From Acerihabitans sp. (GTDB lineage Bacteria; Pseudomonadota; Gammaproteobacteria; Enterobacterales; Enterobacteriaceae): a DNA stretch of 30,000 bases. Where the stretch lies: NCBI RefSeq assembly GCF_036398755.1, contig NZ_DASWOM010000011.1:21637-51636 (forward strand). The letters are read 5' to 3'. The translations under genes were made by a program, and so were the position numbers. The notes under the pieces were generated by a model. That model was not told the DNA's origin. It saw nothing but the letters and a program-made list of their open reading frames with translations, and searched no databases. This document shows positions 12,956-29,426 of this stretch, in pieces; the stretch's first letter is position 1; each line of letters begins with the position of its first letter.

Positions 12956-12985
12956 ATGTCGACATCTGACATATCAGGAGTCGAC
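12956..12985. promoter_or_regulatory. Candidate GntR/FCD operator in the divergent regulator/operon spacer
   Basis: A perfect 10-bp palindrome ATGTCGACAT (12956-12965) fits the GT-N-AC core of FadR-subfamily operators. It is nested in a 28-bp imperfect palindrome (12958-12985, 11 of 14 matches per half) bounded by two GTCGAC copies and covering the AGGAG RBS of the FAD-oxidoreductase gene. Confidence 0.4.
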
Positions 12986-12988
12986 AAT

Positions 12989-14332: not shown

Positions 14333-14349
14333 CCCAGGAGTGTTAAATC

Positions 14350-15093
14350 ATGTTGAGTGTTGAAACCCACGGCGCTACCCGTCGTCTGATCCTCAGTCGC
14401 CCCGAGCGCAGGAACGCCTTGGGCGGTGAAATCATGTCCATGCTGTTGGCCGAATTGAAACAGGCGGAGCGGGAGCCTCAAATCCGGGCCATTGTGCTGA
14501 CCGGCGCGCCCCCCGCGTTTTGCGCAGGCAGTGATTTAAAGGAGCTGGGCGGATTATCCATAGCCGATATGTGTCTGCACGAAGCGGATACGGCCGCGGT
14601 TGCCCGCTATTTCGCGGTGCTGAGCAAGCCGATTATCGCCGCGGTCGAGGGTTACGCGCTAGGGGGCGGTTTTATCCTGGCGGCGTCTTGTGACGTGGTG
14701 GTCAGTGCTGCCGATGCGCGCTGGCATTTGCCTGAAGTGTCCAACGGCTGGTTGCCGCCATGGGGCCTGCAGGCGCTGATTGCCCGCACCGGCGCGCATC
14801 GCGCGCGCGCGTTGTGCTGGGGCATTGCCGCCATGGACGGCGCCCAGGCACAGGCCATCGGCCTGGTCGACCAGATCTGTCAACCCACGCGGGCCGATGA
14901 GCAGGCCATGGCCATCGCGGAAAAATTCGCCTTGCTGCCGCCATCGGCGGTGGCTTCGTGCAAGCGCTATTTTGATCCCCTTTTGAATAATAATGCGGAC
15001 TATCTTGACCGCCTCGCTTCCCGGCACTTTGCCGACGATTGCCTTGGCGGCCAGGCACAAACCGTCCTCGCCAAATATGGAGAAAAAAAATGA
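14350..15093 (+). CDS. Crotonase-superfamily enzyme (enoyl-CoA hydratase/isomerase family), atypical active site
   Basis: 247 aa. Oxyanion-hole segments FCAGSDLKE and GYALGGGFILAASCD. AGGAG RBS at 14335-14339. The canonical GGGxE glutamate reads GGGFI here. Confidence 0.85.
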   Translation: MLSVETHGATRRLILSRPERRNALGGEIMSMLLAELKQAEREPQIRAIVLTGAPPAFCAGSDLKELGGLSIADMCLHEADTAAVARYFAVLSKPIIAAVEGYALGGGFILAASCDVVVSAADARWHLPEVSNGWLPPWGLQALIARTGAHRARALCWGIAAMDGAQAQAIGLVDQICQPTRADEQAMAIAEKFALLPPSAVASCKRYFDPLLNNNADYLDRLASRHFADDCLGGQAQTVLAKYGEKK

Positions 15094-16655
15094 ATAAAAT
15101 CATGACGGCGGAACAGGCCGTCGCCGGTATTCAAGACGGACAAACCGTGGCGGCGGTGGGCGTAATCGGGTGGATTGTGCCGGACCAGACGCTGAAGGCA
15201 TTAGGCCAACGTTTCAAAAATACCGGCGCGCCGCGCAACCTGACTTTTTATTTCCCCTGCGGCACCGGTGATGCGGTAAATATCAAGGGCATGGACCATG
15301 TAGCGCAGCCAGGACTGATGAAGCGCATTGTCTCAGGTTCGTATATCAATCCCGTCGATCCCGCCACCGGTAAGCGGCCGGCCCTGATGGGATTGATACA
15401 GGATAATAACGTTGAGGCCTATTCATGGCCGATCGGCGCTTCCATGCAATGGCTACGTGAAGTGGCGCGAAAATCTCCCGGCTATATTTCCCGCATCGGC
15501 TTAGGCACCTATGTCGACCCCGATTTTGGCGGCGGCAAGTTTACCGCCCGCTGTGAAGAAGACTTAATCCGTAAAATCCATATTGATGGAGAAGAGCTGC
15601 TTTATTACCCGACATGGGATATTGATGTGGCCATAATCCGCGCCAGCAGCGCGGATGAGTTTGGCAATCTTTCTTTCGAGGAGGAGCCGTTGCTGTCGTC
15701 TGGCATAGCGCTGGCGCTTGCCGCCAAAGCCTGCGGCGGCAAAGTCATCGCGCAGGTAAAAAATATCGTCAAGCGGGGTGAACGCCTGGCCAACGACATT
15801 CGTCTTCCGGGTATTTTTATCGACAGCATCGTCCAGGATCCCGATATGCACATGGGCAGCAATGTCGGCGACGACAAACATTATCTGCAACCTGCCGTTG
15901 CGTTTACTCATTTGCCGGATATTCCCTTCGGTCCGGATAAAGTTATCGCCCGCCGCGCCGCAAAAGAAGTGCGCCGGCAAGAACTGTCGATATTCGGGTT
16001 TGGCGCGGCGGCGGATATTCCGCTGGTTATGGTCGAGCAGGGTATTATCGATCCCGGCAATTGCTATGAGGATTACTGGTTCACCACTGAGCACGGATCT
16101 TATGGCGGTATTGTCATGAATGGCTGGCAATTCTCCGCCAATCGCCATCCTGACGCATTGCTGGACGGCTTGACGCAATTTGATGTAATCGATGGAGGAT
16201 TATGTCGTTTTGCCGCCCTAGCGTTCGCGGAATATGACGCGCGCGGCAACGTCAACGTCAGTAAATTTGGCAAGGCCAACCCCGGCGCGGGAGGCTTTAC
16301 CGATATTGCCTTTAACGCGCGGCGCCTGGTTTTTACCGGCTCGTTCACCACCGGCGGCCTGGATATTGCCTATCAACAAGGAAAGATGCATATCCGCCAG
16401 GAAGGCAAGGTCAGTAAATTTGTTCATCAGGCGCAAAGCATTACCTATGCTGTCGGACAGGGGATAAAGAAAGGGCAGGACGCGCTGATTATTACCGAAC
16501 GGGCGGTGTTTGAAGCGACGGCGGACGGCCTGATATTAACCGAAATTGCCCCGGGCGCGGATTTGCAGCGCGACATTCTTGATAAAATGGAGTTCGCTCC
16601 CGTTGGTATCCTTGATCCGCTTCCTTTGATGGAATCATCATTATTCGTTGAATAA
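15090..16655 (+). CDS. Fused alpha/beta acyl-CoA:acetate/3-ketoacid CoA-transferase (YdiF-like, family I)
   Basis: Collinear with E. coli YdiF as I recall it (IGLGTYVDP, LLYYP, ITERAVF, LTEIAPGADLQRDILDKMEF). A candidate catalytic Glu lies in TTEHGSYGG. ATG 15090 overlaps the crotonase stop (ATGA), with GGAG at 15079-15082. Confidence 0.88.
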   Translation: MNKIMTAEQAVAGIQDGQTVAAVGVIGWIVPDQTLKALGQRFKNTGAPRNLTFYFPCGTGDAVNIKGMDHVAQPGLMKRIVSGSYINPVDPATGKRPALMGLIQDNNVEAYSWPIGASMQWLREVARKSPGYISRIGLGTYVDPDFGGGKFTARCEEDLIRKIHIDGEELLYYPTWDIDVAIIRASSADEFGNLSFEEEPLLSSGIALALAAKACGGKVIAQVKNIVKRGERLANDIRLPGIFIDSIVQDPDMHMGSNVGDDKHYLQPAVAFTHLPDIPFGPDKVIARRAAKEVRRQELSIFGFGAAADIPLVMVEQGIIDPGNCYEDYWFTTEHGSYGGIVMNGWQFSANRHPDALLDGLTQFDVIDGGLCRFAALAFAEYDARGNVNVSKFGKANPGAGGFTDIAFNARRLVFTGSFTTGGLDIAYQQGKMHIRQEGKVSKFVHQAQSITYAVGQGIKKGQDALIITERAVFEATADGLILTEIAPGADLQRDILDKMEFAPVGILDPLPLMESSLFVE

Positions 16656-16664
16656 TAATTAATG

Positions 16665-16688
16665 AGGCCTGTTATATTCAACAGGCCT
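16665..16688 (+). terminator. Stem-loop after the CoA-transferase gene (possible attenuating terminator or RNA stabiliser)
   Basis: Perfect 9-bp stem AGGCCTGTT/AACAGGCCT with a 6-nt loop, 10 nt after the stop. Only TT follows, so there is no proper U-tract. Confidence 0.4.
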
Positions 16689-16812
16689 TGAGCCGTATCT
16701 GTCCCTATATTAGCCGCAAACGGCGGGCGCCGTTAATACTGTTATTATCGGTCTCGCCGCCGTCGGCTAAACCTACAATAAATTATATGGCGACAAGCCA
16801 GAGGGTACTTCT

Positions 16813-18102
16813 ATGCTCAAGCGTTTACGGTGGACAATGGTTTTTATGTTGTTTATGGCCGGCGTCATCAGTTATCTGGATCGCGCGGCGCTGTCCGTTG
16901 CCGCCCCTTTGCTGACCAAGGATTTAAACCTGGACCCGGCTGAACTGGGTATTGTATTCAGCAGCTTCTTCATTGGCTATTCGCTGTTCTGTTTTGTCGG
17001 CGGACACTTATCCGATCGCCTGGGGCCAAAAAAAGTCTTGCTGGCGGCCATGCTGGTGTGGTCGCTGTTCTGCGCCTTAACGGCCGGCGTGGCCGGTATC
17101 CTCTCCTTGTTGGTGGTCCGGGTAATCTTCGGCATGGGGGAGGGGCCTTATGCCACATGCACCAATAAAATCATCCACCAATGGTTTCCGGTCGAGAAAC
17201 GCACCACGGCGGTGGGTTTGGCTAACGCGGGTCAACAGGTGGGCGGCGCCATCGCCGGTCCGTTAGTCGGATTGATTGCCGTCACCTGGGGGTGGCGCGT
17301 TCCTTTTCTTCTTATCGGCTTTTTGGGGTTGATATGGCTAATCGTGTGGCGTTTTACCGCCAGCGACAAGCCGCAACTGCATCCCTGGCTGCGCGGCCGC
17401 CTTGACGAGTCAATCGACCCTACGCCCTCCGTTGCCCGCGAGGACACGCCCGCTGTTTCCCTGGGGCAATATTTGCGCCGGCCGACCGTTCTTGCCACGT
17501 CCTTTGCCTTTTTCGGCTACGCCTATGTTCTTTACTTCTTCCTGTCATGGTTCCCGAGCTTCCTGATGATGGAGCGTCATCTGAGCCTGGCCAGCATGAG
17601 CTGGGCGAATATTGTGCCCTGGGTGTTCGGGGCCAGCGGCATCATCTTGGGCGGCCTGATTTGCGATTTGTTGTATCGAAAACTGAAAAAAGGCATTCTC
17701 GCCCATAAAATCGTCATCGTGGTCAGCCTGTTGATTTCCGCCTGCTGCGTCGCCCTGGCCGGGCAGGCTTTCAGCGTCGCCGTGGCCATTGGCCTGATGT
17801 CGGGCGCCGCCTTTTTCACCAACCTTACCCTGAGCGCCTATTGGGGCATTATCTCGGATACGGTGCATGCCAGCCGCATCGGCAGCGTGGGGGGATTTAT
17901 GCATCTGGTGGCTAATACCGCCGGCATTATCGCGCCCACGTTAACCGGTTTTCTCGTCAAGGCCACCGGGACATTCCAGAGCGCTTTTCTTATTTCCGGC
18001 GCCGTTGCGTTGCTCGGCGCGCTGGGGGTGGCTATTTTTGTCCGCCAACCCACTCTTTATACAGCGCGTCGCCGATCGTCCGACATTCGTGCCGACGGTT
18101 AA
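16813..18102 (+). CDS. MFS transporter, anion:cation symporter (ACS) family (GudP/GarP/ExuT/DgoT-like organic-acid permease)
   Basis: 429 aa, about 12 TM segments. The N-terminal signature VISYLDRAALSVAAPLL and GHLSDRLGPKK are typical of ACS-family acid-sugar and organic-anion permeases. Confidence 0.85.
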   Translation: MLKRLRWTMVFMLFMAGVISYLDRAALSVAAPLLTKDLNLDPAELGIVFSSFFIGYSLFCFVGGHLSDRLGPKKVLLAAMLVWSLFCALTAGVAGILSLLVVRVIFGMGEGPYATCTNKIIHQWFPVEKRTTAVGLANAGQQVGGAIAGPLVGLIAVTWGWRVPFLLIGFLGLIWLIVWRFTASDKPQLHPWLRGRLDESIDPTPSVAREDTPAVSLGQYLRRPTVLATSFAFFGYAYVLYFFLSWFPSFLMMERHLSLASMSWANIVPWVFGASGIILGGLICDLLYRKLKKGILAHKIVIVVSLLISACCVALAGQAFSVAVAIGLMSGAAFFTNLTLSAYWGIISDTVHASRIGSVGGFMHLVANTAGIIAPTLTGFLVKATGTFQSAFLISGAVALLGALGVAIFVRQPTLYTARRRSSDIRADG

Positions 18103-18125
18103 CCAGGGGCGATGATAGCCAGATT

Positions 18126-18164
18126 AAAGCGGATGATACATAATCGTATACCCGCTTTTCTTTT
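18126..18164 (+). terminator. Probable intrinsic terminator after the ACS-family MFS gene
   Basis: 7-bp stem AAAGCGG/CCGCTTT (18126-18132 and 18152-18158). The 19-nt loop contains an inner ATAC/GTAT pairing. The stem runs into TTTTCTTTT. Confidence 0.5.
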
Positions 18165-18175
18165 GCAGGAGTCCT

Positions 18176-19090
18176 GTGGTGTCCGATCCTTTTGCGCAAG
18201 TGGTTGCCTTGCTCCAGCCGAGCACACCCTATTCCAAGATTGCCAGCGGCGCGGGCCGCTGGCGCGTTCAGCGCTCTGAGCCGGGACGGCCATTTTACTG
18301 CGCGGTTCTCGAAGGTGCCTGCCGGCTCGCGGCCGATGGCAACGAACCGCTGATCCTGGCCGAGGGTGACTTTGTCCTGATCCCGGCGGTGCATAACTTC
18401 TCGACGTCCAGCCTGCTTGCGGCGGGTCCGCAAGACCTCGTCGTCGCGCCAACCCTATTGGCCAATGGCGAATTCAGGCTAGGTAATGCGCATGGCCCCG
18501 CCGAGGTTCGCTTGCTGATAGGCTACTGCGTTTTTGATTCTCCCGACGCGGCGTTGCTGGTTTCGCTGCTGCCCAGGTTGGTGCATGTCCGCGGCGAAAA
18601 GCGGCTGGCCACCATCCTGCAGCTGGTGAGGGAAGAAGCGCGTTCGCAGAGGCCCGCGCGCGATATTATCCTGGCGCGGCTGCTGGAGGTGCTGTTTATC
18701 GAAGCCCTGCGCTCAACGGTTGGGACGTCGGCGTCGCCCGGACTTTTGCGCGGGCTGGCCGACGACCGCGTCGCGGGCGCATTGCGCGGCATGCATGAAA
18801 CGCCGTCACGCCCCTGGACCGTTGCGCAATTGGCGAAAGAAGCCTCCCTCTCGCGATCGGCGTTTTTTGAGCGTTTTCATCGTGCCCTGGGCGTCGCCCC
18901 GATGGAATACCTGCTCGCCTGGCGCATGGCATTGGCCAAGAATTTTCTGCGTAGCGGAAACCTGGCCATGACCGAAGTCGCCCAGCGGGTCGGCTACAGT
19001 TCGGCCAGTTCGTTCAGCGTGGCGTTTAACCGCTATGCGGGGCTGCCCCCGGCCCGGTACGCGCGCGAACAGGGCGAAGGGGCCGAGTAA
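18176..19090 (+). CDS. AraC-family transcriptional regulator with N-terminal cupin domain
   Basis: 304 aa. The N-terminus DPFAQVVALLQP is typical of cupin_6-type AraC regulators. The C-terminus has a double HTH (WTVAQLAKEASLSRSAFFERF ... MTEVAQRVGYSSASSFSVAFNR). GTG start with AGGAG at 18167-18171. Confidence 0.85.
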   Translation: MVSDPFAQVVALLQPSTPYSKIASGAGRWRVQRSEPGRPFYCAVLEGACRLAADGNEPLILAEGDFVLIPAVHNFSTSSLLAAGPQDLVVAPTLLANGEFRLGNAHGPAEVRLLIGYCVFDSPDAALLVSLLPRLVHVRGEKRLATILQLVREEARSQRPARDIILARLLEVLFIEALRSTVGTSASPGLLRGLADDRVAGALRGMHETPSRPWTVAQLAKEASLSRSAFFERFHRALGVAPMEYLLAWRMALAKNFLRSGNLAMTEVAQRVGYSSASSFSVAFNRYAGLPPARYAREQGEGAE

Positions 19091-20123: not shown

Positions 20124-20280
20124 CCTCGCGCAAGCGCTATTTTCAGCGCGACGCATCATGGCGCCTGATTTTAGGGCGCGCGGCGCTGGCGTCAACCGGG
20201 CAATGAACAGATTTCGCTGTAATAATGGCGCGGGGCTGCTTAGTATGGCAGATGCCTTTTATCAGCACGGGATGATAGTG

Positions 20281-21174
20281 ATGACCATTGAAAATCCAAC
20301 CATTGCCCTCGTCGGGCCGGGTGCCATCGGCACGACCCTGGCGGCGGCGCTGCATGAAGCCGGACGCACGCCAACCCTCTGCGGGCGCACGGCGCTTGAG
20401 CGCCTGGAGCTGCGCTTCGACGGCGGTCGTATCCTGGTGCCCGGGCCCGTGCATACCGATCCGGGCTTGATCAAGCATACCTTCGACCTGGTTTTCGTCG
20501 CGGTCAAGACGACCCAGGTGGCGGCGGCGGCGCCGTGGCTGTACGCATTGTGCGGCGCGAAAACGGTGGTCTGCGTACTGCAAAACGGCGTTGAGCAGCA
20601 AACGCTTTTCGCGCCGTTTTTATCCGGCGGCCCGGTGCTGCCCTCGGTGGTATGGTGTCCCGCGCAACGGGAACCGGACGCCTCGGTATGGCTGCGCGCC
20701 GAAGCACGCCTCACCCTGCCGGACACGCCGGCGGCCAGCCTGGTGATCGCCGCTTTGCGCGGCACCCGTTGTTCGGTCGACCTGGCGCAGGATTTTACCT
20801 CCGTCGCGTGGCGAAAACTGCTGCAGAACGCGGTCGCGGGTTTAATGGTGCTGGCCGGTCGCCGTGCCGGCATGTTCGCGCGCGCCGATATCTCCGGTCT
20901 GGCCCTGGCCTACCTGAGGGAATGTCTTGCGGTGGCGCGCGCCGAGGGCGCATTGCTGGGCGACGACGTACCGCAGGAGATCCTCGAGGGCTTTCATCGC
21001 TCCCCGCCCGACCTGGGCACCTCCATCCTTGCCGACCGCCAGGCCGGCAACCCGCTTGAATGGGACTGCCGGAACGGGGTGGTGCGCAGATGTGGCCAGG
21101 CTCGCGGCATTCCAACGCCGATAAGCGATCTGGTGGTGCCGCTGCTGGCCGCCGCCAGCGACGGACCCGGCTGA
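20281..21174 (+). CDS. 2-dehydropantoate 2-reductase family oxidoreductase (PanE/ApbA-like)
   Basis: The Rossmann motif IALVGPGAIG lies near the N-terminus when the start is ATG 20281. Also present are AVKT, LQNGV and a C-terminal ApbA_C-like region (ILADRQAGNPLEWDCRNG). The track start at 20158 adds 41 poorly coding-looking residues. Confidence 0.75.
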   Translation: MTIENPTIALVGPGAIGTTLAAALHEAGRTPTLCGRTALERLELRFDGGRILVPGPVHTDPGLIKHTFDLVFVAVKTTQVAAAAPWLYALCGAKTVVCVLQNGVEQQTLFAPFLSGGPVLPSVVWCPAQREPDASVWLRAEARLTLPDTPAASLVIAALRGTRCSVDLAQDFTSVAWRKLLQNAVAGLMVLAGRRAGMFARADISGLALAYLRECLAVARAEGALLGDDVPQEILEGFHRSPPDLGTSILADRQAGNPLEWDCRNGVVRRCGQARGIPTPISDLVVPLLAAASDGPG

Positions 21175-21221: not shown

Positions 21222-21423
21222 CTTCGGGTCGGCATCCTTATCTTCCCCAGGCTCAGCCCGGCCAAGCAGAGGCCGAACCGCGCCCCGTCATTGTCGCGGC
21301 GCATTAAAAATGTTTTTATAAACAAGATATAGATCACACTTAGTATTTCTTCTTTAAATCAATAGATTAACCATGATTTTTGTATTTTTGCTTAAAAGTC
21401 GTTGTAATTGCAAATCCACGCCG

Positions 21424-21451
21424 TTGACATCAATGCACACGTGTGCATAAA
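21424..21451 (+). promoter_or_regulatory. Candidate sigma70 promoter upstream of the kinase-enolase operon
   Basis: TTGACA (21424-21429), a 16-nt spacer, then CATAAA (21446-21451), inside the AT-rich spacer. It lies about 200 nt upstream of ATG 21656. A second, weaker candidate is TTGACA at 21576-21581. Confidence 0.45.
21433..21448. promoter_or_regulatory. Candidate LacI-family operator
   Basis: Perfect 16-bp palindrome ATGCACACGTGTGCAT with a central CG, the same architecture as PurR/CcpA/LacI-type operators. It overlaps the spacer and -10 of the candidate promoter. Confidence 0.5.
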
Positions 21452-21655
21452 TTAAGTCAATCGCGGCAAAGAATAACGGTTGTGAAAAGAGCGCTTACGC
21501 ATTGGTATTCATTTAAGCAGGTTAAATTTAAGTGAATCGCCGTTTTTGGGTAAACAACGGGCAGCTGTTGAATAATTGACAATTCTTATTGTTGATGGGT
21601 TTAGTGCGCGTTTAAAAACCATGCCGGTCTAAAGTTGGCCAGAGAAGGGTGACAT

Positions 21656-22684
21656 ATGGGAAATAGTTTTATAGACCTGTCGGCTGAACATCAGGCCATC
21701 CAGGAGGTGCTGCAAAATATGGGACTATTGCATGCGGGTAATACCTGGCATGCCACCGCCCTGACCGGCGGCGTATCCTCTAATATTTTAAAAATCACCG
21801 TCGGCAATCGGCAATTCTGTCTTAAACAGGCCTTGCCTACGCTTAAAGTCGCCAAAGAATGGCACGCGCCATTGGAGCGGATTTTTGCCGAAATCGACTG
21901 GATGAAAACCGTTGCGCGGATTGAACCCCATGTAGTGCCAAAGATATTGGGCGTGGATAACCGGCATCTCTGTTTCGTCATGGAATATTTGCCTGCGGAA
22001 CACTATCGCAATTGGAAATCCCAGCTATTGAACGGCGAGATTGATGTTGGTTTCGCCGAACGAATGGGGGGCATTCTTAATAACATACATAAACAAACGG
22101 CAAAGAATAACGAACTGGCGAGAATGTTTGCCTACGATGAGAACTTTTTCTCGCTGCGGCTGGATCCCTATCTTGGGGAAATCGCGCGCCATTGCCCTGA
22201 GCACTCCGCCTCTATTCTATCCATATTGCATCGCACCCAAACCACGAAAATCGCTTTGGTTCATGGTGATGTCAGTCCAAAGAATATTCTGCGCGGACCG
22301 CAAGGCCCGGTGATCCTGGATGCGGAATGTGCCTGGTACGGCGATCCCGCTTTTGATTTGGCATTCTGCCTCAATCATTTTTTACTGAAATCCGTTATCG
22401 CAAAAAAGAGCATTGATAAACAGCGGCTGCTGGCTTCGTTTCAGGCCCTGAGTGAAAAATATATTGCCGATATAGATTGGGAGCCTGCGGCGGATTTGAA
22501 TCTGCGCGCGGCAACGCTTTTGCCTTGTCTGCTGCTGGCGCGGGTTGATGGAAAATCACCGGCCGAATATATACAAGGCCGGGATGCGGATCGGGTGCGC
22601 CAGGCAAGTTTCACCTTACTTGACCGTGGATATACGCAATTAAAAGATATCCAGGAATTCTGGAAGAAGGAGATAGGTTTATGA
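21656..22684 (+). CDS. APH-fold small-molecule kinase, methylthioribose-kinase (MtnK)-like
   Basis: 342 aa. MtnK-like N-lobe (LTGGVSSNILKI ... CLKQALPTLKV). Brenner catalytic motif HGDVSPKN. Mg-binding segment ILDAECAWYGDPAFDLAF (compare MtnK IDPEFAFYGP.GFD). AAGGG RBS. The stop overlaps the next ATG. Confidence 0.8.
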   Translation: MGNSFIDLSAEHQAIQEVLQNMGLLHAGNTWHATALTGGVSSNILKITVGNRQFCLKQALPTLKVAKEWHAPLERIFAEIDWMKTVARIEPHVVPKILGVDNRHLCFVMEYLPAEHYRNWKSQLLNGEIDVGFAERMGGILNNIHKQTAKNNELARMFAYDENFFSLRLDPYLGEIARHCPEHSASILSILHRTQTTKIALVHGDVSPKNILRGPQGPVILDAECAWYGDPAFDLAFCLNHFLLKSVIAKKSIDKQRLLASFQALSEKYIADIDWEPAADLNLRAATLLPCLLLARVDGKSPAEYIQGRDADRVRQASFTLLDRGYTQLKDIQEFWKKEIGL

Positions 22685-23952
22685 GTAAAATAAAAAATAT
22701 CGTTGCCCGGCGTATATGGGATTCCCGCGGCTGGCCGACCGTTGAAGCCGAAGTTCATTTAGATAACGGCGTTATCGGCCGGGGTTTGGCCCCGGCCGGC
22801 GCCTCGCGCGGTATGCATGAAGCCGTTGAACTGCGCGACGGCGGCGCCACGCTCTCGGGCAAGGACGTGCGGCAGGCATTGTTGAATATCAAACATGAAA
22901 TCGCCCCCGCGCTGATCGGCCTGGACGTCACCGACCAGCGGTTAATCGATAATACCTTGATTGAACTGGATGGCACCGGCAACTTTGCCCGTTTGGGCGC
23001 CAATGCCACCGTAGCCTGCTCGATGGCCGCTATATACGCGGCCGCGGGCCACGCGCATGTGCCTTTGTGGAAATATCTTGCCGGCGGCAACCCTGTCGCC
23101 ATGCCTTTGCCGCAGATTCAAATTTTCGGCGGCGGGGCCCATGCCGGCCGGCGTATCGATATCCAGGATCTGATGGTGATTGCCAACGGCGCAACCTCCT
23201 TCCAGGAAGCCCTGGTGATGACCGCCGAGGTCTATCACAGCGCGGGTCGAATCATGGAGCGGCGCGGGCAGTTAAATGGCGTCGCCGATGAGGGCGGCTG
23301 GTGGCCCGCGTTTTCAAATAACGAGCAAGCGCTTGATACGCTGGTTAAGGCGATTGAGGGCGCGGGTTACACGCCGGGCCAGGATGTGTCCATCGCGTTG
23401 GACATCGCGTCGTCCGAGTTTGGTCAAAACGGACGTTATCGTCTGGCGCTGGAGTCAACCGAATATGACTCGGACGGCATGTGCGAATTATTACTCGGCT
23501 GGCTTGACCGCTATCCCATTATTTCCATTGAAGACCCGTTAGCTGAAGATGATGAGGCGGGATTGATTGCCTTTACCAAAGCGGCGGGCGCGCGCGTTCA
23601 AATCGTCGGTGATGACTATTTCGTGACCAATGCCGATCGGGTCAAGGCCGCCGTGGCGAAAGGAGCCTGCAACGCCGTGCTGTTAAAACCCAATCAGGCC
23701 GGCACCCTTACCCAATTATTCAATGCCTGTGAACAGGCAAAGTCGGCCGGCTTTGGGACGATTATTTCGGCCCGCTCCGGGGAGACGGAGGATAATATCA
23801 TCGTACATTTAGCCCTGGGCCTGAATGCCGGGCAATTAAAAGTGGGCTCCATAACACGCGCCGAGCGTACCTCGAAATGGAATGAGGCCATTCGCCTGGA
23901 AGATTCAAACGATTTGGGTTTTTTAGGGATAAGGGCACTGGGAAATAAATAA
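22681..23952 (+). CDS. Enolase-family protein (divergent phosphopyruvate hydratase paralogue)
   Basis: 423 aa, collinear with E. coli Eno. Shared segments: DSRGWPTVEAEVHL, GASRG, VADEGGW, ALDIASSEF, ISIEDP, IVGDDYFVTN, LLKPNQAGTL, SGETED, LKVGS. AGGAG RBS. The ATG overlaps the kinase stop as ATGA at 22681-22684. Confidence 0.9.
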   Translation: MSKIKNIVARRIWDSRGWPTVEAEVHLDNGVIGRGLAPAGASRGMHEAVELRDGGATLSGKDVRQALLNIKHEIAPALIGLDVTDQRLIDNTLIELDGTGNFARLGANATVACSMAAIYAAAGHAHVPLWKYLAGGNPVAMPLPQIQIFGGGAHAGRRIDIQDLMVIANGATSFQEALVMTAEVYHSAGRIMERRGQLNGVADEGGWWPAFSNNEQALDTLVKAIEGAGYTPGQDVSIALDIASSEFGQNGRYRLALESTEYDSDGMCELLLGWLDRYPIISIEDPLAEDDEAGLIAFTKAAGARVQIVGDDYFVTNADRVKAAVAKGACNAVLLKPNQAGTLTQLFNACEQAKSAGFGTIISARSGETEDNIIVHLALGLNAGQLKVGSITRAERTSKWNEAIRLEDSNDLGFLGIRALGNK

Positions 23953-24087
23953 CTGAAGGTTTACATGATTTATTAGCTGAACAGGCGTTATCTATAGGTT
24001 TTATTATCCTATATCCTGCCGTTTTTTGACTGTCTGTTCTGGTTATAGGAATTTTTGCAATTCAATATTTGCAATCAGGAGATTCAA

Positions 24088-25398
24088 ATGACCGAATACG
24101 GCAGTGAAACTTTACCCGTGGCTGAAAAAAAGGTGCAGGTAAAACCCATCATTCAGGTGGGGGCGGGCAACGCGCTCGAAATATATGATTTTATGATCTA
24201 TGGGTATTATGCCCGTTATATATCCCAGGCATATTTTCCTTCAGATAATGAATATACTTCACTTATGCTAACGCTGATGACCTTTGCGCTGGGTTTCTTT
24301 GCCCGGCCATTCGGGGCGATTATATTAGGATCCTATACCGATCGGCATGGACGAAGAAAAGGCTTGGTTTTATCGCTGTTTTTAATGTCGCTCGGGATCC
24401 TGTGTATTGCCCTCACGCCGACCTATGCCGCCATAGGCGTGGCCGCGCCGATTATTGTACTGTTAGGCCGGCTGCTGCAAGGGTTCTCCGCCGGTGCTGA
24501 ATTAGGTGGCGTGGTGGTCTATTTAGCCGAAATATCACCGCCCCATCGCCGGGCTTTTTATACCTGCTGGCAGGTGGGTTCGCAGCAGTTTGCCGTCATG
24601 ACGGCGTCGATTGTAGGCCTGGTCCTGCTTTATGCCATGCCGACCGCGCAACTGCACGACTGGGGCTGGCGTATCCCCTTGCTCATTGGCTGCGCCGTTA
24701 TTCCGCTGATGTTCTGGTTACGTTCAAATCTCCAGGAAACCGCGGTTTTCGCCAAGAAAAAAAGAACGCCGACGGTAAAGGAAATTTGCTCTAGCCTGAC
24801 CACCGGATGGCGCACCATAGTGACCTGTATGGGCATGGTGGCCATGGCGACCGTTACCGCGCAAACTGTTACCACCTATGCGCCAACCTATATCAAAAGC
24901 CTTAACCTGGGGGAAAACGTGGGTTTTATTACGTTATTCTTCGTTGGTTTGTCTATTTTATTCTGGTTGCCCATCACCGCGTCTATCGCCGATCGCGTCA
25001 ACCGGCGCACGATGATGATAATAGTGACGCTGCTGGCCGCCGTCACCGCTTATCCTCTTCTATCATGGCTTTCAGCGGAACCCACCATCCTTAAGTTTGT
25101 GGTGTTCGAGCTGTGGTTCTCATTTATTTACGCCTGCTATAGCTCGGTACAGGTCGCCGCCATGGTGGAAATGGTGCCGGCGCATGCCCGCACCGCGGGT
25201 TATTCCTTTGCGCAGGCGGTAGCCGCCGCCGTCCTGGGCGGGTTGACCCCGGCCATTTACACCTGGCTGAACCATGCTTTCAACAGCAATGCGATGGTCG
25301 GGGTCTGGCTTGGTTTCAACGCGCTGCTGAGCCTTATCGCCGTATTGACGCTTGACCATAAACAAACAAAGATAAATCAATTCGTTGAATTGCATTGA
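24088..25398 (+). CDS. MFS transporter, metabolite:H+ symporter (MHS) family, citrate/tricarballylate (CitA/TcuC)-like
   Basis: YDFMIYGYYARYISQAYFP...SLMLTLMTFALGFFARPFGAIILGSYTDRHGRRKGL resembles the CitA/KgtP-type signature. I prefer ATG 24088, preceded by AGGAG. The track start is 24055. Confidence 0.85.
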   Translation: MTEYGSETLPVAEKKVQVKPIIQVGAGNALEIYDFMIYGYYARYISQAYFPSDNEYTSLMLTLMTFALGFFARPFGAIILGSYTDRHGRRKGLVLSLFLMSLGILCIALTPTYAAIGVAAPIIVLLGRLLQGFSAGAELGGVVVYLAEISPPHRRAFYTCWQVGSQQFAVMTASIVGLVLLYAMPTAQLHDWGWRIPLLIGCAVIPLMFWLRSNLQETAVFAKKKRTPTVKEICSSLTTGWRTIVTCMGMVAMATVTAQTVTTYAPTYIKSLNLGENVGFITLFFVGLSILFWLPITASIADRVNRRTMMIIVTLLAAVTAYPLLSWLSAEPTILKFVVFELWFSFIYACYSSVQVAAMVEMVPAHARTAGYSFAQAVAAAVLGGLTPAIYTWLNHAFNSNAMVGVWLGFNALLSLIAVLTLDHKQTKINQFVELH

Positions 25399-25467
25399 AT
25401 GTGCTCGCCGCGCTAGGGCGCGCGGAGATGGCACGCGTAAGGTTTTAATTCATCCGGTAGGTATTAT

Positions 25468-26430
25468 ATGAAAATAGTTATTTTAGATGGCGGCGTGCTC
25501 AATCCCGGCGATCTTTCATGGACGCGGCTTGAGCAGTTGGGAGAGATACAGGTTTATGAAAATTCGGCGCCGGAGGAGGTGGTGGAACGCATAGGCCGTG
25601 CGGAGATCGCTATCGTCAATAAGGTGTCTTTGGGCCGGAAAGAATTTGAGCGCTGTCCTGAGCTCAGGTTTATCGGCGTTACGGCGACCGGTTATAATAA
25701 CATCGATCTTGCCGCCGCCGGAAACCAGGGTATCGCCGTGGCCAATGTTCCCACCTACGGCACGGTTACCGTGGCGCAATTTACCACTTCGCTGATGCTC
25801 GAACTCTGTAATCACGTGGGTGAACACGCGCTTGACGTCCGCGCCGGCGGCTGGAGCCGAAAAACCGACTTTTGCTATTGGCTGAAACCAATGATCGAGG
25901 TCGCCGATAAAAGCGTCGGCATTATCGGCTTCGGCCGCATTGGCCAGGCGTTCGGCATGGTTGCCCAGGCGCTCGGGATGAAGGTCCTGGCCTATGATGA
26001 GCATCGCGACCTGTCGCTGGAAAATGAGCGGGTCCGATATGTCGATTTGGACACTCTGTATGCGCAAGCGGATATCATCAGCCTGCACTGTTTATTGACC
26101 GGCAAAACGCAGGGCATGATTAACGCCGCCGCCATCGGCAAAATGAAAAAATCGGTGTTGATCCTGAACGCCTCACGGGGCGACCTGGTCAATGAAGCGG
26201 ATTTGGCCGCGGCGTTAAACAGCGGCCGCGTCGCCGGCGCGGCGGTGGATGTGCTATCGCAGGAGCCGCCGTCGCCGGATAATCCGCTGCTGTCCGCCAG
26301 GAACTGCCTGGTTACGCCGCATATTGCCTGGGCTTCGGTCGAGGCGCGCGGGCGGATTCTCGCCATCACCGCCGACAACGTCAAGGCGTTTATCAACGGT
26401 CACCCGCAAAATCGGGTTGATACTCTCTAA
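25468..26430 (+). CDS. D-isomer-specific 2-hydroxyacid dehydrogenase, glycerate dehydrogenase/hydroxypyruvate reductase (HprA)-like
   Basis: 320 aa. NAD fold GIIGFGRIGQAFG. Candidate catalytic Arg (NASRG), Glu (DVLSQEPP) and His (TPHIAWAS). The overall pattern (MKIVILD..., FCYW, SLHCLLT) resembles HprA-type enzymes. Confidence 0.85.
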   Translation: MKIVILDGGVLNPGDLSWTRLEQLGEIQVYENSAPEEVVERIGRAEIAIVNKVSLGRKEFERCPELRFIGVTATGYNNIDLAAAGNQGIAVANVPTYGTVTVAQFTTSLMLELCNHVGEHALDVRAGGWSRKTDFCYWLKPMIEVADKSVGIIGFGRIGQAFGMVAQALGMKVLAYDEHRDLSLENERVRYVDLDTLYAQADIISLHCLLTGKTQGMINAAAIGKMKKSVLILNASRGDLVNEADLAAALNSGRVAGAAVDVLSQEPPSPDNPLLSARNCLVTPHIAWASVEARGRILAITADNVKAFINGHPQNRVDTL

Positions 26431-26458
26431 CAGCACATGGGGTATTGAAAACAGCATA

Positions 26459-27241
26459 ATGGAAAATTCAATTACCAACGCGGCGGATGTGATTCGCGCG
26501 GCATGGGAAAATGGCAAAGCCGGGCAACCCATCCGCGCTGCTTTCAGTGATGACGATACCGTCAGCGGATATAGGATCCAGGAATACAATGATACCCTTT
26601 GGCAGGCGCAAGGGCGCCGGCGGGTCGGCCGCAAGCTGGCGTTGACCAATAAAGCCGTGCAGCGGCAATTCGGCATGTCCCGGCCCTGCCATGGGAATAT
26701 CTATGCCGACATGGTATTGGTGGAAGGAACCGAAATCACCAGGCGGGCCTCCTCCGAGCAGCGCGTCGAAACTGAAATAGCGGTGGTGCTTAAAAAAGAC
26801 CTGACGCAGACCACTCATACCATCCTGGATATTATCGACGCCTGCGATTATATATTGCCCGCCTTTGAAATTGTGGATAGCCGCTTTATCGGCTGGAATG
26901 TCAGGTCCTGTGATTTTATCGCCGATAATACCTCCGCCTGCCTGGTGGTTTTTGGCACCAAACCGGTCAGGTTGTCTGATTTTGATATGACGCGCAGCCT
27001 GATGACCACCAAAAGAGGTGATGAGGTGGTCTCTGTAGGCGCCGCGGCGGCGTGCCTGGGCCATCCCTTGCACGCCCTCAAATGGCTTGCCGATGAACTT
27101 GTTCGCGCCGGGAATCCGCTCAGGGCGGGGGAATTCGTCATCACCGGCGCGCTGGGGCCGGCGGTCGCCGCCGCGCCCGGCGATACGTTTACCGCCGAGA
27201 TCACCGGCCTGGGTTCGGTTACCACGGTTTTTGCTCGATAA
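26459..27241 (+). CDS. 2-oxopent-4-enoate / 2-oxohept-3-enedioate hydratase family protein (MhpD/HpcG/XylI class, FAH fold)
   Basis: The family pattern is present: YRIQE, GRKLALTNKAVQRQFG, ETEIAVVLKKDL, FEIVDSRF..W, IADNTSA, LGHPLHALKWLADEL..AG.PLRAGEFVITGAL. ATG 26459 is the first in-frame start after the upstream gene's stop. The RBS is weak. Confidence 0.8.
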   Translation: MENSITNAADVIRAAWENGKAGQPIRAAFSDDDTVSGYRIQEYNDTLWQAQGRRRVGRKLALTNKAVQRQFGMSRPCHGNIYADMVLVEGTEITRRASSEQRVETEIAVVLKKDLTQTTHTILDIIDACDYILPAFEIVDSRFIGWNVRSCDFIADNTSACLVVFGTKPVRLSDFDMTRSLMTTKRGDEVVSVGAAAACLGHPLHALKWLADELVRAGNPLRAGEFVITGALGPAVAAAPGDTFTAEITGLGSVTTVFAR

Positions 27242-27277
27242 TCAGCAAAATCTCTCGCCAGAATGGCAGGATAAATC

Positions 27278-28057
27278 ATGACACGACAGCGTGAACTGCA
27301 GCAGAATCATTTTAAGCATGCGATTAAACAGGGGCAGGTTCAACTGGGTTTGTGGACGCAGCTGGGCAGCGCTATTGCCGCGGAAATCCTCTCCGGCTGC
27401 GGCTACGATTTCATGGGTTTGGACGCGGAGCATGGCCCCAGCGAGTATATGGATATCTATGCCCAACTGCAGGCCTGCGCCGCCGGCGGCCCGACACAGC
27501 CGGTGGTCCGGCTGCCCAACCAGGATATCTCGCTGATAAAACGCTATCTCGACGCCGGGGCGAATACGCTGATGGTGCCGCAGGTGGATACCCCGGAACA
27601 GGCCGAAACGCTCGTCTCGGCGGTGCGCTATCCGCCCCGGGGCATTCGTGGTTATTGCGGCGCGCCCAGGGCGTCAAACTTCGGCAGGATAAAAAATTAC
27701 GCCGCCGTCTGCGAACGCGAAATTTGCCTGATCGTGATGCCGGAGACCATCACTGCCCTTGATAACCTTGAAAAAATGGCTGCGATTGACGGCATCGACG
27801 GCTTTTTTATCGGCCCGGGGGATTTGGCCGCCAGTCTGGGATATATCGGCCAGCCCATGCATCCGGAGGTCATCAAGACCATTGAAGAGAGCGGCAGACG
27901 AATTAAGGCCGCGGGTAAAGCCGCCGGCATTCTGTGTACCGATGAACAGCAAACGCGGCGCTATATTGAAGTGGGTTTTCAGATTATCGCGATCGGATCG
28001 GATCAGGGGCTGTTAACCCAAGGCGCTGAAAACCTGTTGGCAAAATTTCGGCAATAA
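27278..28057 (+). CDS. HpcH/HpaI/GarL-family class II 2-keto-3-deoxy-acid aldolase
   Basis: 259 aa, collinear with E. coli GarL as I recall it: GLW..., DAEHGP, PVVRLP, YPPRGIRG, DGFFIGPGDLAASLG, AIGSD. AGGA RBS 6 nt upstream of the ATG. Confidence 0.88.
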   Translation: MTRQRELQQNHFKHAIKQGQVQLGLWTQLGSAIAAEILSGCGYDFMGLDAEHGPSEYMDIYAQLQACAAGGPTQPVVRLPNQDISLIKRYLDAGANTLMVPQVDTPEQAETLVSAVRYPPRGIRGYCGAPRASNFGRIKNYAAVCEREICLIVMPETITALDNLEKMAAIDGIDGFFIGPGDLAASLGYIGQPMHPEVIKTIEESGRRIKAAGKAAGILCTDEQQTRRYIEVGFQIIAIGSDQGLLTQGAENLLAKFRQ

Positions 28058-28105
28058 GCAGGGTCAACGAATCAGGTGGTTTTTTGCTCTAATGGCGGTA
28101 TGTTT

Positions 28106-28138
28106 GGATGCGTATATTACCTACGCATCCGTTTTTTT
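28106..28138 (+). terminator. Rho-independent terminator of the kinase...aldolase operon
   Basis: Perfect 9-bp stem GGATGCGTA/TACGCATCC (28106-28114 and 28122-28130) with a 7-nt loop, followed by G plus T7 (28132-28138). It lies 49 nt after the aldolase stop. Confidence 0.85.
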
Positions 28139-28145
28139 ATCCAGG

Positions 28146-29258
28146 TTACCGTTCTGACCGGTTCACGCCGGTTGAATCGCCAAGCGCCAGCCGTGGCGTA
28201 AATAGCTGGTTTTCTGTCGAGCGGATAAATTCATCATGGGTTAAAGTCAATTCGCTGTCCATGATGTGGCGAATCATATCCACGCAGGCGTCAGTCACTT
28301 CTTTTTCCGGTAGCACGACCGTCGTGAGCTGCATATCCAGCAAACTTCCCCAGGGCACCAGGCCATAGGCCACCACGGAAAGATCCTGCGGAATGCGAAC
28401 GCGCAGCGCTTTGGCGGCGGTCAACATGCCCATGGCGTAACGCGGGCTGCCCAGCACCAGCGCGCTTGGCGCGTGGTCCACGCTCATGATCCGTTTAAAG
28501 GCGGCGGTGCCGAACTCGGCCTGCGGCGGTCCGATATGGATAATATCCTTGAGCGCCGCCTGCTCCGCACTCGAGAAATGCTGTAAAAACCCCTGCAATC
28601 GTTCAAAGCCGGTGCTCAGGTCGGTGGATGACCCTATATAGCCAATCCGGGTATGGCCGAGTCTGCGCAAATGCACGGTGGCGAGACTGATGCCATAACG
28701 ATCGTCAATCGCGATAAGCGGCGCCTGGATGCCGTCATGGCGGCGGAGCAGCTGCACCGCATGGGTACGGGTGATAAGCTCCCGCGTTTCGGGCAGGGGA
28801 TTTGCCGAGGGCGCAATAATAATGCCATCCACGCTTGCGGCCATCATCCGGCGCAAAACGTGATATTCCGTATCAGGGTGATCTTCGGTAATGGCCAGGA
28901 TCATTTGCCACGATCGTTTACCCGCCTCGCGGGCGATGGCATTGGTTACGGAAATAAAAAAGTCGTTCTGGATATCGGGAATAATGACCCCAAAAGCGCC
29001 GCTTGTCGCATTACGCAATGCCTGCGCGGCGCTGTTGGGAATATAGCCATATTTTTTTGCAGCCTGTAGCACGCTTTCTCGGGTGGATTGACTGATTGCC
29101 GGGTGACCGTTTAAGGCACGGGAAACCGTGGAATGAGACAATCCCAAAATAGCAGCCAATTTCTTTATCGTCACCGAGCTACCTTTAATTCGGCCAGGTC
29201 CTGGTTTCCCTAACTTATGTATAGTATTAAAATACTTAATAATATTACCATCAGTCAC
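28146..29258 (-). CDS. LacI/GalR-family transcriptional regulator
   Basis: HTH segment VTIKKLAAILGLSHSTVSRALNGHPAISQSTRESVLQAAKKYGYIPNSAAQALR followed by a periplasmic-binding-fold effector domain. GTG 29258 has GAGGG 7 nt upstream. An alternative GTG at 29174 (AAAGG 7 nt upstream) would give the canonical LacI N-terminus. Confidence 0.88.
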   Translation of the reverse strand: MTDGNIIKYFNTIHKLGKPGPGRIKGSSVTIKKLAAILGLSHSTVSRALNGHPAISQSTRESVLQAAKKYGYIPNSAAQALRNATSGAFGVIIPDIQNDFFISVTNAIAREAGKRSWQMILAITEDHPDTEYHVLRRMMAASVDGIIIAPSANPLPETRELITRTHAVQLLRRHDGIQAPLIAIDDRYGISLATVHLRRLGHTRIGYIGSSTDLSTGFERLQGFLQHFSSAEQAALKDIIHIGPPQAEFGTAAFKRIMSVDHAPSALVLGSPRYAMGMLTAAKALRVRIPQDLSVVAYGLVPWGSLLDMQLTTVVLPEKEVTDACVDMIRHIMDSELTLTHDEFIRSTENQLFTPRLALGDSTGVNRSER

Positions 29259-29426
29259 ACTGAAACCCTCTGTGCCGACTTTATCATAACCGGTATGCGG
29301 CTAACAGCGACATAGGTCCGGAACCCCAACCATAATTCGCGGCAATCTTCCGCTTTTTAGTCAATGTACGCCGCCCGGCCCTCGGGCACACCGCTATCAA
29401 CACCGCATACCCGGCATTATCGGTGC

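Follow-up and report, generated by a model that had tools for sequence, protein, structure and literature searches.

A widespread kinase-enolase module in a putatively LacI-controlled catabolic islet of Acerihabitans sp. and its possible role in the conversion of D-glycerate to phosphoenolpyruvate

Introduction

Why should a catabolic gene cluster carry an enolase of its own, directly behind a kinase of the APH fold, and on what do these two enzymes act? The question is raised by an islet of seven genes in a 30,000-nucleotide stretch of DNA from Acerihabitans sp. (contig NZ_DASWOM010000011.1, positions 21,637 to 51,636), which is referred to below as the window and to which all coordinates refer unless a surveyed locus (L followed by three digits) is named. 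In the islet (21422-29258), a promoter that contains a putative operator is followed by six co-oriented genes, a strong terminator and, convergent to them, a LacI gene. A first-pass annotation of the window had taken these genes for a single bespoke pathway, in which a 2-oxo-enoate is hydrated and cleaved and the C3 fragment is carried through glycerate to phosphoenolpyruvate (PEP), and had recognised no described pathway in them. None was found in the literature either, where no description of the kinase-enolase pair, of a new glycerate kinase class or of the cluster turned up, and nothing relevant on phosphotartrate or phosphosulfolactate routes or on the combination of hydratase, aldolase and dehydrogenase; a published L-threonate route (PMC12994016) is unrelated to the islet. 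The answer favoured here, which we hold to be about evenly balanced between right and wrong, is that the pair consists of a D-glycerate 2-kinase of new fold and a dedicated enolase that would form PEP, fed in this islet by an imported di- or tricarboxylate. This reading builds on observed gene content, signals, conservation and co-occurrence, from which we infer all substrates, reactions and the identity of the effector.

The kinase and the enolase as a two-gene module

The first two genes of the islet encode an APH/MtnK-fold kinase of 342 aa (21656-22684, + strand, Pfam APH) and an enolase-family protein of 423 aa (22681-23952, + strand, TIGR01060), and the enolase start overlaps the kinase stop by 4 nt (ATGA). 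In a survey of 96 kinase loci, the six-frame open reading frame (ORF) sets of which were scanned against Pfam and with a tblastn panel, an enolase homologue was found within 8 kb of the kinase in 86. The enolase followed immediately after the kinase in 79 of the 96, three loci had the reversed order and in four the genes were a few kb apart; among the ten loci without an enolase within 8 kb, seven are contig ends and one is a decayed copy. Fused kinase-enolase ORFs also exist (P0293, P0327 and P0390). The family is large, with at least 586 loci from a genome scan with the kinase profile and at least 679 clusters at 50% identity (E ≤ 1e-30), and its hosts are found in the Alpha-, Beta- and Gammaproteobacteria, Acidobacteria, Actinomycetes, Methylomirabilales and SAR324. 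Judged from these gene arrangements, kinase and enolase are a conserved two-gene module, independent and widespread, with a LacI regulator and operator of its own, and the transporter, dehydrogenase, hydratase and aldolase of the islet are lineage-specific add-ons to it. The bespoke six-enzyme pathway of the first-pass annotation is abandoned here because the kinase-enolase pair and its LacI/operator form such an independent module.

A kinase outside the known glycerate kinase classes

The kinase matches an NCBI protein of Acerihabitans sp. with 100% identity. It scored 71 bits against Pfam APH (PF01636, cut-off 23), the only other Pfam match being Fructosamin_kin, and it matched the NCBIfam models for MtnK, ThiK and LxmK weakly; the score against the MtnK equivalog model TIGR01767 was 74.3 bits, which does not pass the cut-off of 275. 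The catalytic HGD...N and Mg-binding D motifs are intact, His203, Gly204, Asp205, Asn210 and Asp222 being invariant in 17 sequences, and the DAE motif is likewise invariant. An AlphaFold model (pLDDT 90.7) gave 5-methylthioribose kinase as the best structural match (TM 0.8), and none of the solved structures belongs to the kinase clade. MtnK is thus closest both in fold and in sequence model and has the nucleotide-binding and catalytic motifs in common with the islet kinase, whereas the latter is about 60 residues shorter, shares 17% identity and has no methionine-salvage genes around it. A role in methionine salvage, suggested by the combination of an MtnK-like kinase and an 'enolase', was rejected since no mtn genes are present; the 'enolase' of that pathway is a RuBisCO-like or MtnC protein and not a glycolytic-type enolase.

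Glycerate kinases have been divided into class I (GlxK/GarK), class II (MOFRL) and class III (P-loop) (PMC2063504). By its profile matches the islet kinase stands outside all three. It is proposed from sequence to be a (2R)-2-hydroxy-acid (D-glycerate) 2-kinase, and its invariant Arg and Lys residues point to a negatively charged substrate. A protein of 720 aa (P0341, loci L092 and L093) has a UxuA (D-mannonate dehydratase) domain fused to a kinase domain that is 40% identical to the window kinase; its contig, an unrelated context with little annotation, encodes an exostosin-type glycosyltransferase but no enolase in the vicinity, and the fusion could be a pointer to sugar acids as substrates in one side branch of the kinase family.

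The active site of the paired enolase

The enolase matched TIGR01060 over its full length with 469.8 bits (cut-off 300) and is 44% identical to E. coli enolase. Its residues were aligned to an E. coli enolase sequence that agrees with the PDB alignments, and E. coli numbering is used for them here. In common with glycolytic enolase, the metal ligands Asp246, Glu290 and Asp317, the catalytic Lys342 and Glu209 (yeast Glu211), the carboxylate-binding Lys393 and the phosphate-binding Arg-Ser loop with Ser42 are kept, in the window enolase as well as in 10 further kinase-linked enolases. In contrast to glycolytic enolase, the protein is encoded with an APH kinase and has Glu168 replaced by Asp, His370 (yeast His373) by Ala, Gly207 by Ala and Thr394 by Val, together with changed residues by the catalytic Lys (Phe343 to Pro and Ile346 to Ala). 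Asp at position 168 and Ala at position 370 were each found in 68 of 68 kinase-linked enolases, and canonical PDB enolases retain Glu168 and His373. Further changes adjoin nearly every catalytic motif in the 68 sequences, most members carry a new Arg in the lid loop, and several clade-specific Trp substitutions sit away from the catalytic motifs. Even the most divergent members, found in Rhodococcus and Methylobacterium nodulans (41-47% identity), share Asp168, Ala370, Ala207 and Val394 and have small residues beside the catalytic Lys as well; the full active-site signature is the same across the simple, complex and plasmid contexts sampled. No solved structure belongs to the kinase-linked clade.

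Glu168 and His373 are taken here, from established enolase enzymology, to flank the C3 hydroxyl of 2-phosphoglycerate. With both of these family-defining residues exchanged, the paired enolase is, by sequence, a member of a distinct clade and not an ordinary enolase; the first-pass annotation had listed it simply as the cluster's own enolase. Since the metal, carboxylate and phosphate ligands and the Lys/Glu pair are retained, its chemistry is predicted to be enolase-like, on a 2-phospho-carboxylate with a beta leaving group. Given the invariant changes at catalytic-site residues, 2-phosphoglycerate is a candidate for that substrate.

Repressor and presumed operator

A perfect 16-bp palindrome, ATGCACACGTGTGCAT, presumed to be a LacI-family operator, is found at 21433..21448 between the -35 and -10 elements of a sigma-70-type promoter (21424..21453, + strand; TTGACA, 18-nt spacer, TAAATT; 10/12 consensus matches), about 200 nt upstream of the kinase start codon. 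The palindrome occurs as a single copy in the window, without a second operator copy in the enolase-transporter spacer, and an Rfam search of the 200-nt leader and the remaining islet found neither a riboswitch nor an sRNA. Four enterobacterial cassettes share the block TTGAC...ATGCACACGTGTGCATAAAT without variation, the leader being otherwise unconserved. The 12-bp core GCACACGTGTGC, with at most 1 mismatch, had 15 matches in 1.67 Mb of related loci, and 13 of them lie upstream of the kinase operon or its linked TctC transporter. In Consotaella the core is present at both the kinase promoter and the TctC promoter, and it is also found in simple Paraburkholderia operons with LacI divergent from kinase-enolase-dehydrogenase/MFS.

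The LacI-family repressor gene (28146-29258, - strand, maximal ORF 370 aa; Pfam LacI, Peripla_BP_1 and Peripla_BP_3) encodes an N-terminal helix-turn-helix followed by a periplasmic-binding-protein-like effector domain. The helix-turn-helix begins at residue 30 of the maximal ORF, so the start is probably the GTG near 29174. LacI orthologues flank the enterobacterial cassettes with 65-66% identity and the simple kinase-enolase operons with 38-47% identity. Repressor and palindrome are thus presumed to belong to the kinase-enolase module, the palindrome as its putative operator.

The remaining two core sites are at L037:12380 and 12499 in Paraburkholderia sediminicola, about 10 kb downstream of the kinase operon. 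They precede a gene starting at about 12953, beyond the fetched DNA, which is probably a further regulon member.

Transporter, dehydrogenase, hydratase and aldolase of the islet

The third gene (24088-25398, + strand) encodes an MHS-family MFS carboxylate/proton symporter of 436 aa, TcuC-like, which passes the TcuC subfamily model NF011656 with 518 bits (cut-off 445); its frame is open from 24055, and an AGGAG ribosome-binding site precedes the ATG at 24088. It is followed by a D-isomer-specific 2-hydroxyacid dehydrogenase of 320 aa (25468-26430, + strand; Pfam 2-Hacid_dh and 2-Hacid_dh_C), HprA/glycerate-dehydrogenase-like, which scored 324 bits against PRK06487, below the cut-off of 448, and the best solved structure for which, 5tx7, is of an uncharacterised protein.

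The fifth gene (26459-27241, + strand, NF008461) encodes an MhpD/DmpE-type 2-oxo-4-enoate hydratase homologue of the FAH superfamily, 260 aa and 100% identical to the NCBI protein P0121. It scored 248 bits against the MhpD model, below the cut-off of 350, and the closest solved structures are the 2-oxopent-4-enoate hydratases 8ih6 and 1sv6. Relatives at about 46% identity stand in canonical meta-cleavage operons with DmpF and DmpG, whereas the window hydratase pairs with an HpcH aldolase. Tracing the parent pathway through these relatives was uninformative, as they are ordinary meta-cleavage MhpD/DmpE proteins. In at least 9 cases, hydratase orthologues of at least 57% identity lay on contigs equal in length to those that carry kinase homologues.

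The last gene before the terminator (27278-28057, + strand, Pfam HpcH_HpaI) encodes a class II HpcH/HpaI-family 4-hydroxy-2-oxoacid aldolase of 259 aa. No subfamily model was passed: 288 bits against HpaI (TIGR02311, cut-off 369), 231 against 407 and 246 against 393 for the GarL models TIGR03239 and NF007849, and 241 bits, below the cut-off, for RhmA. Matches in the PDB were HpaI with 232, YfaU with 224 and GarL with 206 bits, and from these scores the aldolase appears roughly equidistant from HpaI, GarL and RhmA. The Pfam and NCBIfam profiles upheld the family assignments that the first-pass annotation had given to all seven proteins.

Genomic contexts in other lineages

In more than half of the surveyed loci, none of the transporter, regulator and other pathway genes of the test panel was linked to the pair. 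A D-2-hydroxyacid dehydrogenase was linked in 33 of the 96, and six carboxylate transporter families were linked altogether: MHS, TTT, TRAP, ACS-type MFS, MCT-like MFS and EamA. In minimal operons LacI is divergent from kinase-enolase and one ACS or MCT-like carboxylate transporter. At the other extreme, the dehydrogenase-hydratase-aldolase set occurs with the pair also in Rhizobium panacihumi, Consotaella, an alphaproteobacterial metagenome-assembled genome and L104; in Consotaella TctCBA replaces MHS behind the same operator. Counting Yokenella and Enterobacter with these lineages, the kinase-enolase and transporter-aldolase halves of the islet do occur together elsewhere, so the finding that would have spoken against linking them, namely that they are never found side by side, was not made.

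The likeness to the lower glucarate/galactarate route noticed in the first-pass annotation was borne out by bona fide GarL and GarR adjoining the cluster in two lineages. In R. panacihumi the cluster is immediately preceded by a garR-MOFRL-garL operon, with equivalog scores of 469 vs 451 bits for GarR and 439 vs 393 bits for GarL, and GarL and GarR come directly after the cluster in L104 (521 vs 397 bits for GarR and 439 vs 393 bits for GarL). The second aldolases of L085 and L104 pass the GarL cut-off, and GarR-like genes accompany the pair in Ramlibacter, Bosea and Consotaella, in the last within the regulon. With true GarR co-occurring with the dehydrogenase, the latter probably does not simply stand in for GarR as had been supposed.

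A ppc-dehydrogenase-kinase operon with an enolase nearby was found on three Rhizobiaceae plasmids (Rhizobium and Pararhizobium). On Paracoccus and Roseibium plasmids LacI is divergent from kinase-enolase-FAH-SDR, accompanied by sugar ABC and TTT transporters, and the FAH protein of these clusters would be a 2,4-diketo-3-deoxyhexonate hydrolase releasing glycerate. Divergent glpK, a bona fide glycerol kinase gene, stands beside the pair throughout one clade, in 11 Burkholderiales loci, for example at L063:8381-9883 (- strand; 806 bits, cut-off 498), which may be a functional tie to C3 metabolism or mere conserved synteny.

A second cluster type is built on the dehydrogenase-kinase-enolase trio, with a cupin, a VOC-family protein, a Zn-alcohol dehydrogenase, an NAD(P)H oxidoreductase, FAH-family proteins and a LIV-type ABC transporter. 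It was seen in L095 (Rhizobium sp. N324 pRspN324b), L099, L103, L101 (Cupriavidus necator p1), L096 (Rhodococcus opacus PD630 plasmid) and L037:6734-12266, the Rhizobiaceae versions having a plasmid-borne ppc in addition, and it gives the impression of a ring- or reductone-cleaving route that feeds the trio. In one lineage an RraA-like protein is encoded divergently from the kinase (L104:2252-2929, - strand; 229 bits, slightly below the NF004850 cut-off of 231). Its family is that of 4-carboxy-4-hydroxy-2-oxoadipate aldolase / oxaloacetate decarboxylase, which is compatible with tricarboxylate chemistry.

Possible substrates of the pair

The recurrent partners of the pair (dehydrogenase, GarR, GarL, ppc, glpK and FAH-SDR) would all make or use D-glycerate or PEP, with enzymes of the hydroxypyruvate reductase and tartronate-semialdehyde reductase types predicted to feed the pair and PEP carboxylase to follow it. 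A D-glycerate 2-kinase with an enolase is favoured because the contexts appear to share this D-glycerate input and PEP output. The enolase signature, being identical in all contexts sampled, argues for one common hub substrate, and the more than half of the loci that have no linked pathway genes argue for a central metabolite as product. Read in this way, the islet would be a LacI-repressed operon for the import of an anion, probably a di- or tricarboxylate related to the aldarates, which dehydrogenase, hydratase and aldolase would convert to pyruvate and a C3 hydroxy- or oxo-acid. The C3 fragment, tartronate semialdehyde or hydroxypyruvate, would then give D-glycerate. Its 2-hydroxyl would be phosphorylated by the MtnK-fold kinase, which would take the position of GarK as a fourth, non-orthologous glycerate kinase class, and the translationally coupled, dedicated enolase would dehydrate the kinase product to PEP. 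The repressor would bind the palindrome over the promoter and presumably sense a shared intermediate.

Several points weigh against the glycerate reading. We know of no glycerate kinase of APH fold. A housekeeping enolase would suffice for ordinary 2-phospho-D-glycerate, so that a dedicated and remodelled one is left unexplained, and the APH kinase would be redundant in R. panacihumi since a MOFRL-type glycerate 2-kinase homologue is encoded in the same supercluster. The reading neither assigns detailed roles to dehydrogenase and hydratase nor names a substrate. Canonical MhpD-type hydration places H, not OH, on C5, and for this reason hydratase and aldolase do not straightforwardly give tartronate semialdehyde. 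The hydration-and-cleavage route of the first-pass annotation is weakened at the same step, while its continuation through glycerate to PEP agrees with the glycerate- and PEP-linked partners. The conversion of tartrate to oxaloacetate was considered as well and down-weighted, as the ppc linkage implies PEP and not oxaloacetate as product.

To our knowledge, the enolase family proper is regarded as monofunctional, and enolase is among the most conserved and best understood enzymes. Our tentative and less likely suggestion is that the kinase-linked clade is the first branch of the family proper to leave 2-phosphoglycerate and that, with the kinase, it uses ATP to prime an elimination from some other 2-hydroxy acid, for instance an aldarate, a tetronate, a 2,3-dihydroxy acid or sulfolactate; organic acids would then be dehydrated or desulfonated in a way not known before, and one widespread among bacteria associated with soil and plants. 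The form of it in which the pair acts on another or larger (2R)-2-hydroxy-3-X acid, with an aldarate, a tetronate such as L-threonate or D-erythronate, or 2,3-dihydroxybutyrate as candidates, is the main rival of the favoured reading and is considered unlikely. The kinase would here make the 2-phospho ester, the enolase the phosphoenol form of a 2-keto-3-deoxy acid, and a pyruvate kinase or phosphatase would dephosphorylate it, so that the pair would be an ATP-cycled substitute for the GarD/GudD-type sugar-acid dehydratases and would feed the aldolase. This explains the obligate pairing and the remodelled C3 pocket (Glu168Asp, His373Ala, the small residues beside the Lys and the lid-loop Arg), and no GarD/GudD-type dehydratase was seen in the GarL/GarR-carrying clusters or the kinase-enolase-FAH-SDR sugar clusters. 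A canonical glycerate kinase homologue alongside the pair in R. panacihumi, LacI regulators and an ACS-type MFS transporter typical of sugar acids, and the existence of the UxuA-kinase fusion point in the same direction. The identical enolase signature in very different contexts, however, favours one hub metabolite, most loci stand alone with no downstream enzyme for an exotic product, and no enzyme is assigned to the removal of the enol phosphate. The chemistry also lacks precedent in the enolase family proper, and the linkage to ppc favours PEP itself as the product.

PEP would also be the product if the leaving group were not hydroxide, as in the conversion of (R)-3-sulfolactate by way of 2-phospho-3-sulfolactate to PEP and sulfite (the reverse of ComA), or if the substrate had the opposite C2 configuration (L-glycerate). 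Such a product fits the ppc linkage and the stand-alone loci, the extra space in the enolase on both sides of C2/C3 could hold a bulkier leaving group or an inverted substrate, and the D-2-hydroxyacid dehydrogenase could make (R)-sulfolactate from sulfopyruvate. Sulfolactate was nevertheless down-weighted because two acidic residues, Asp168 and Glu209, are kept near C3, where these carboxylates would be expected to repel sulfonate or phosphate, and because no sulfite exporter or oxidase turned up among the neighbours examined. For L-glycerate, the linked dehydrogenases and GarR yield the D (2R) isomer, and the GarL, GarR and glpK contexts point to glycerate against both variants, which are together rated as very improbable. 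Hardly more probable is the proposal that the enolase is a second 2-phosphoglycerate isozyme with a non-catalytic signature that serves inhibitor resistance or a kinase-enolase complex, a refinement of the favoured reading and no true alternative to it. Tartronate semialdehyde phosphate is a classical tight-binding enolase inhibitor. A promiscuous kinase could make this compound and the enolase be resistant to the by-product; tartronate semialdehyde is the direct glycerate precursor in GarR-linked clusters. The overlap of the two genes (ATGA), the fused ORFs and the clade-specific Trp substitutions distant from the catalytic motifs agree with the isozyme proposal, which is entirely speculative, the inhibitor argument being drawn from classical enolase enzymology.

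Relation to known systems

The lower D-glucarate/galactarate route of E. coli (GarL, GarR, GarK and enolase) shares with the islet a class II HpcH-family aldolase, carboxylate uptake, a reduction that gives a D-2-hydroxy acid, a kinase and an enolase reaction leading to PEP, and in two other lineages true GarL and GarR genes lie beside the cluster itself. The islet differs from it in a kinase of APH/MtnK fold instead of GarK/GlxK or MOFRL, in an aldolase below the GarL cut-offs, and in an MhpD-like hydratase without GarD/GudD. Islet-type clusters also have a D-2-hydroxyacid dehydrogenase instead of or besides GarR, an MHS or TTT transporter and not GarP/GudP, a LacI-type regulator and not CdaR, and an atypical enolase of their own. 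The homoprotocatechuate enzymes HpaH and HpaI likewise combine an FAH-superfamily hydratase with a subsequent HpcH-family aldolase, and HpaI is the best-scoring aldolase model; the islet hydratase is, however, nearer to MhpD than to HpaH (248 vs 156 bits), neither of the two islet proteins reaches its equivalog cut-off, and the islet has a LacI-type regulator and no ring-cleavage genes. In the serine-cycle segment HprA-glycerate 2-kinase-Eno-Ppc the logical order from hydroxypyruvate to oxaloacetate is the same as on the Rhizobium/Pararhizobium plasmids, which encode dehydrogenase, kinase, enolase and PEP carboxylase together, but the plasmid kinase and enolase are non-canonical and the neighbouring cupin, VOC, Zn-alcohol dehydrogenase and FAH genes are not serine-cycle genes.

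The genes of the pair are now annotated as 'aminoglycoside phosphotransferase' and 'eno'. If the kinase is a fourth glycerate kinase class with a private enolase, the annotation of glycerate, glyoxylate and aldarate assimilation would change in hundreds of genomes; the alternative outcome would be a reaction new to the enolase family. The islet itself points to a catabolic route, for a di- or tricarboxylate from plants or soil, that has yet to be assigned.

Acquisition and surroundings of the islet

The order and orientation of the seven genes, the terminator and the convergent LacI gene were as previously annotated. The intrinsic terminator between the convergent aldolase and LacI genes (28105..28138) has a 10-bp stem and 7-nt loop (28105-28131) followed by a T7 tail. 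Also the lower GC content was reproduced, being 53.3% in 21300-29300 vs 59.4% for the remaining window, with 62-67% in the three genes immediately upstream; GC at third codon positions (GC3) was 53-69% in the islet genes vs 73-78% in the upstream genes. The earlier description 'LacI-bounded' applies to one side of the islet and not to the other. The block from promoter to lacI (21422-29210) has counterparts of about 72% nucleotide identity in three further enterobacterial loci, namely Yokenella, Enterobacter sp. BIGb0383 and one metagenome contig (L001, L086 and L087), with different flanking genes in each. By the two criteria used, composition and context, the islet is a horizontally acquired element, as indicated by its deviant GC and GC3 and by the same block in differing contexts of related taxa. 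With the islet as query, plasmid megablast found no match.

The JGI metagenome contig Ga0490067_18843 carries the whole cassette in a state of decay (L087:10001-17300), in which the enolase is in three ORFs and transporter, aldolase and LacI are truncated while the operator is still perfect. In Enterobacter sp. BIGb0383 only, a GH28 polygalacturonase gene (L086:7640-9022) is found just upstream of the cassette, a weak hint at pectin- or galacturonate-derived acids as substrate source. An ApbA/PanE-family oxidoreductase gene (20272-21174, + strand; NF009541, 536 bits, cut-off 338) is located immediately upstream of the islet in high-GC host DNA, and ApbA-family genes are upstream of the kinase-enolase pair in three other loci as well. 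A separate putative catabolic cluster at 12956-19090 has an FAD-dependent oxidoreductase, an enoyl-CoA hydratase, a CoA transferase, an MFS transporter and an AraC-type regulator, and a TctC-family binding protein is encoded at 6000-6968; the window as a whole appears to be rich in organic-acid catabolism genes.

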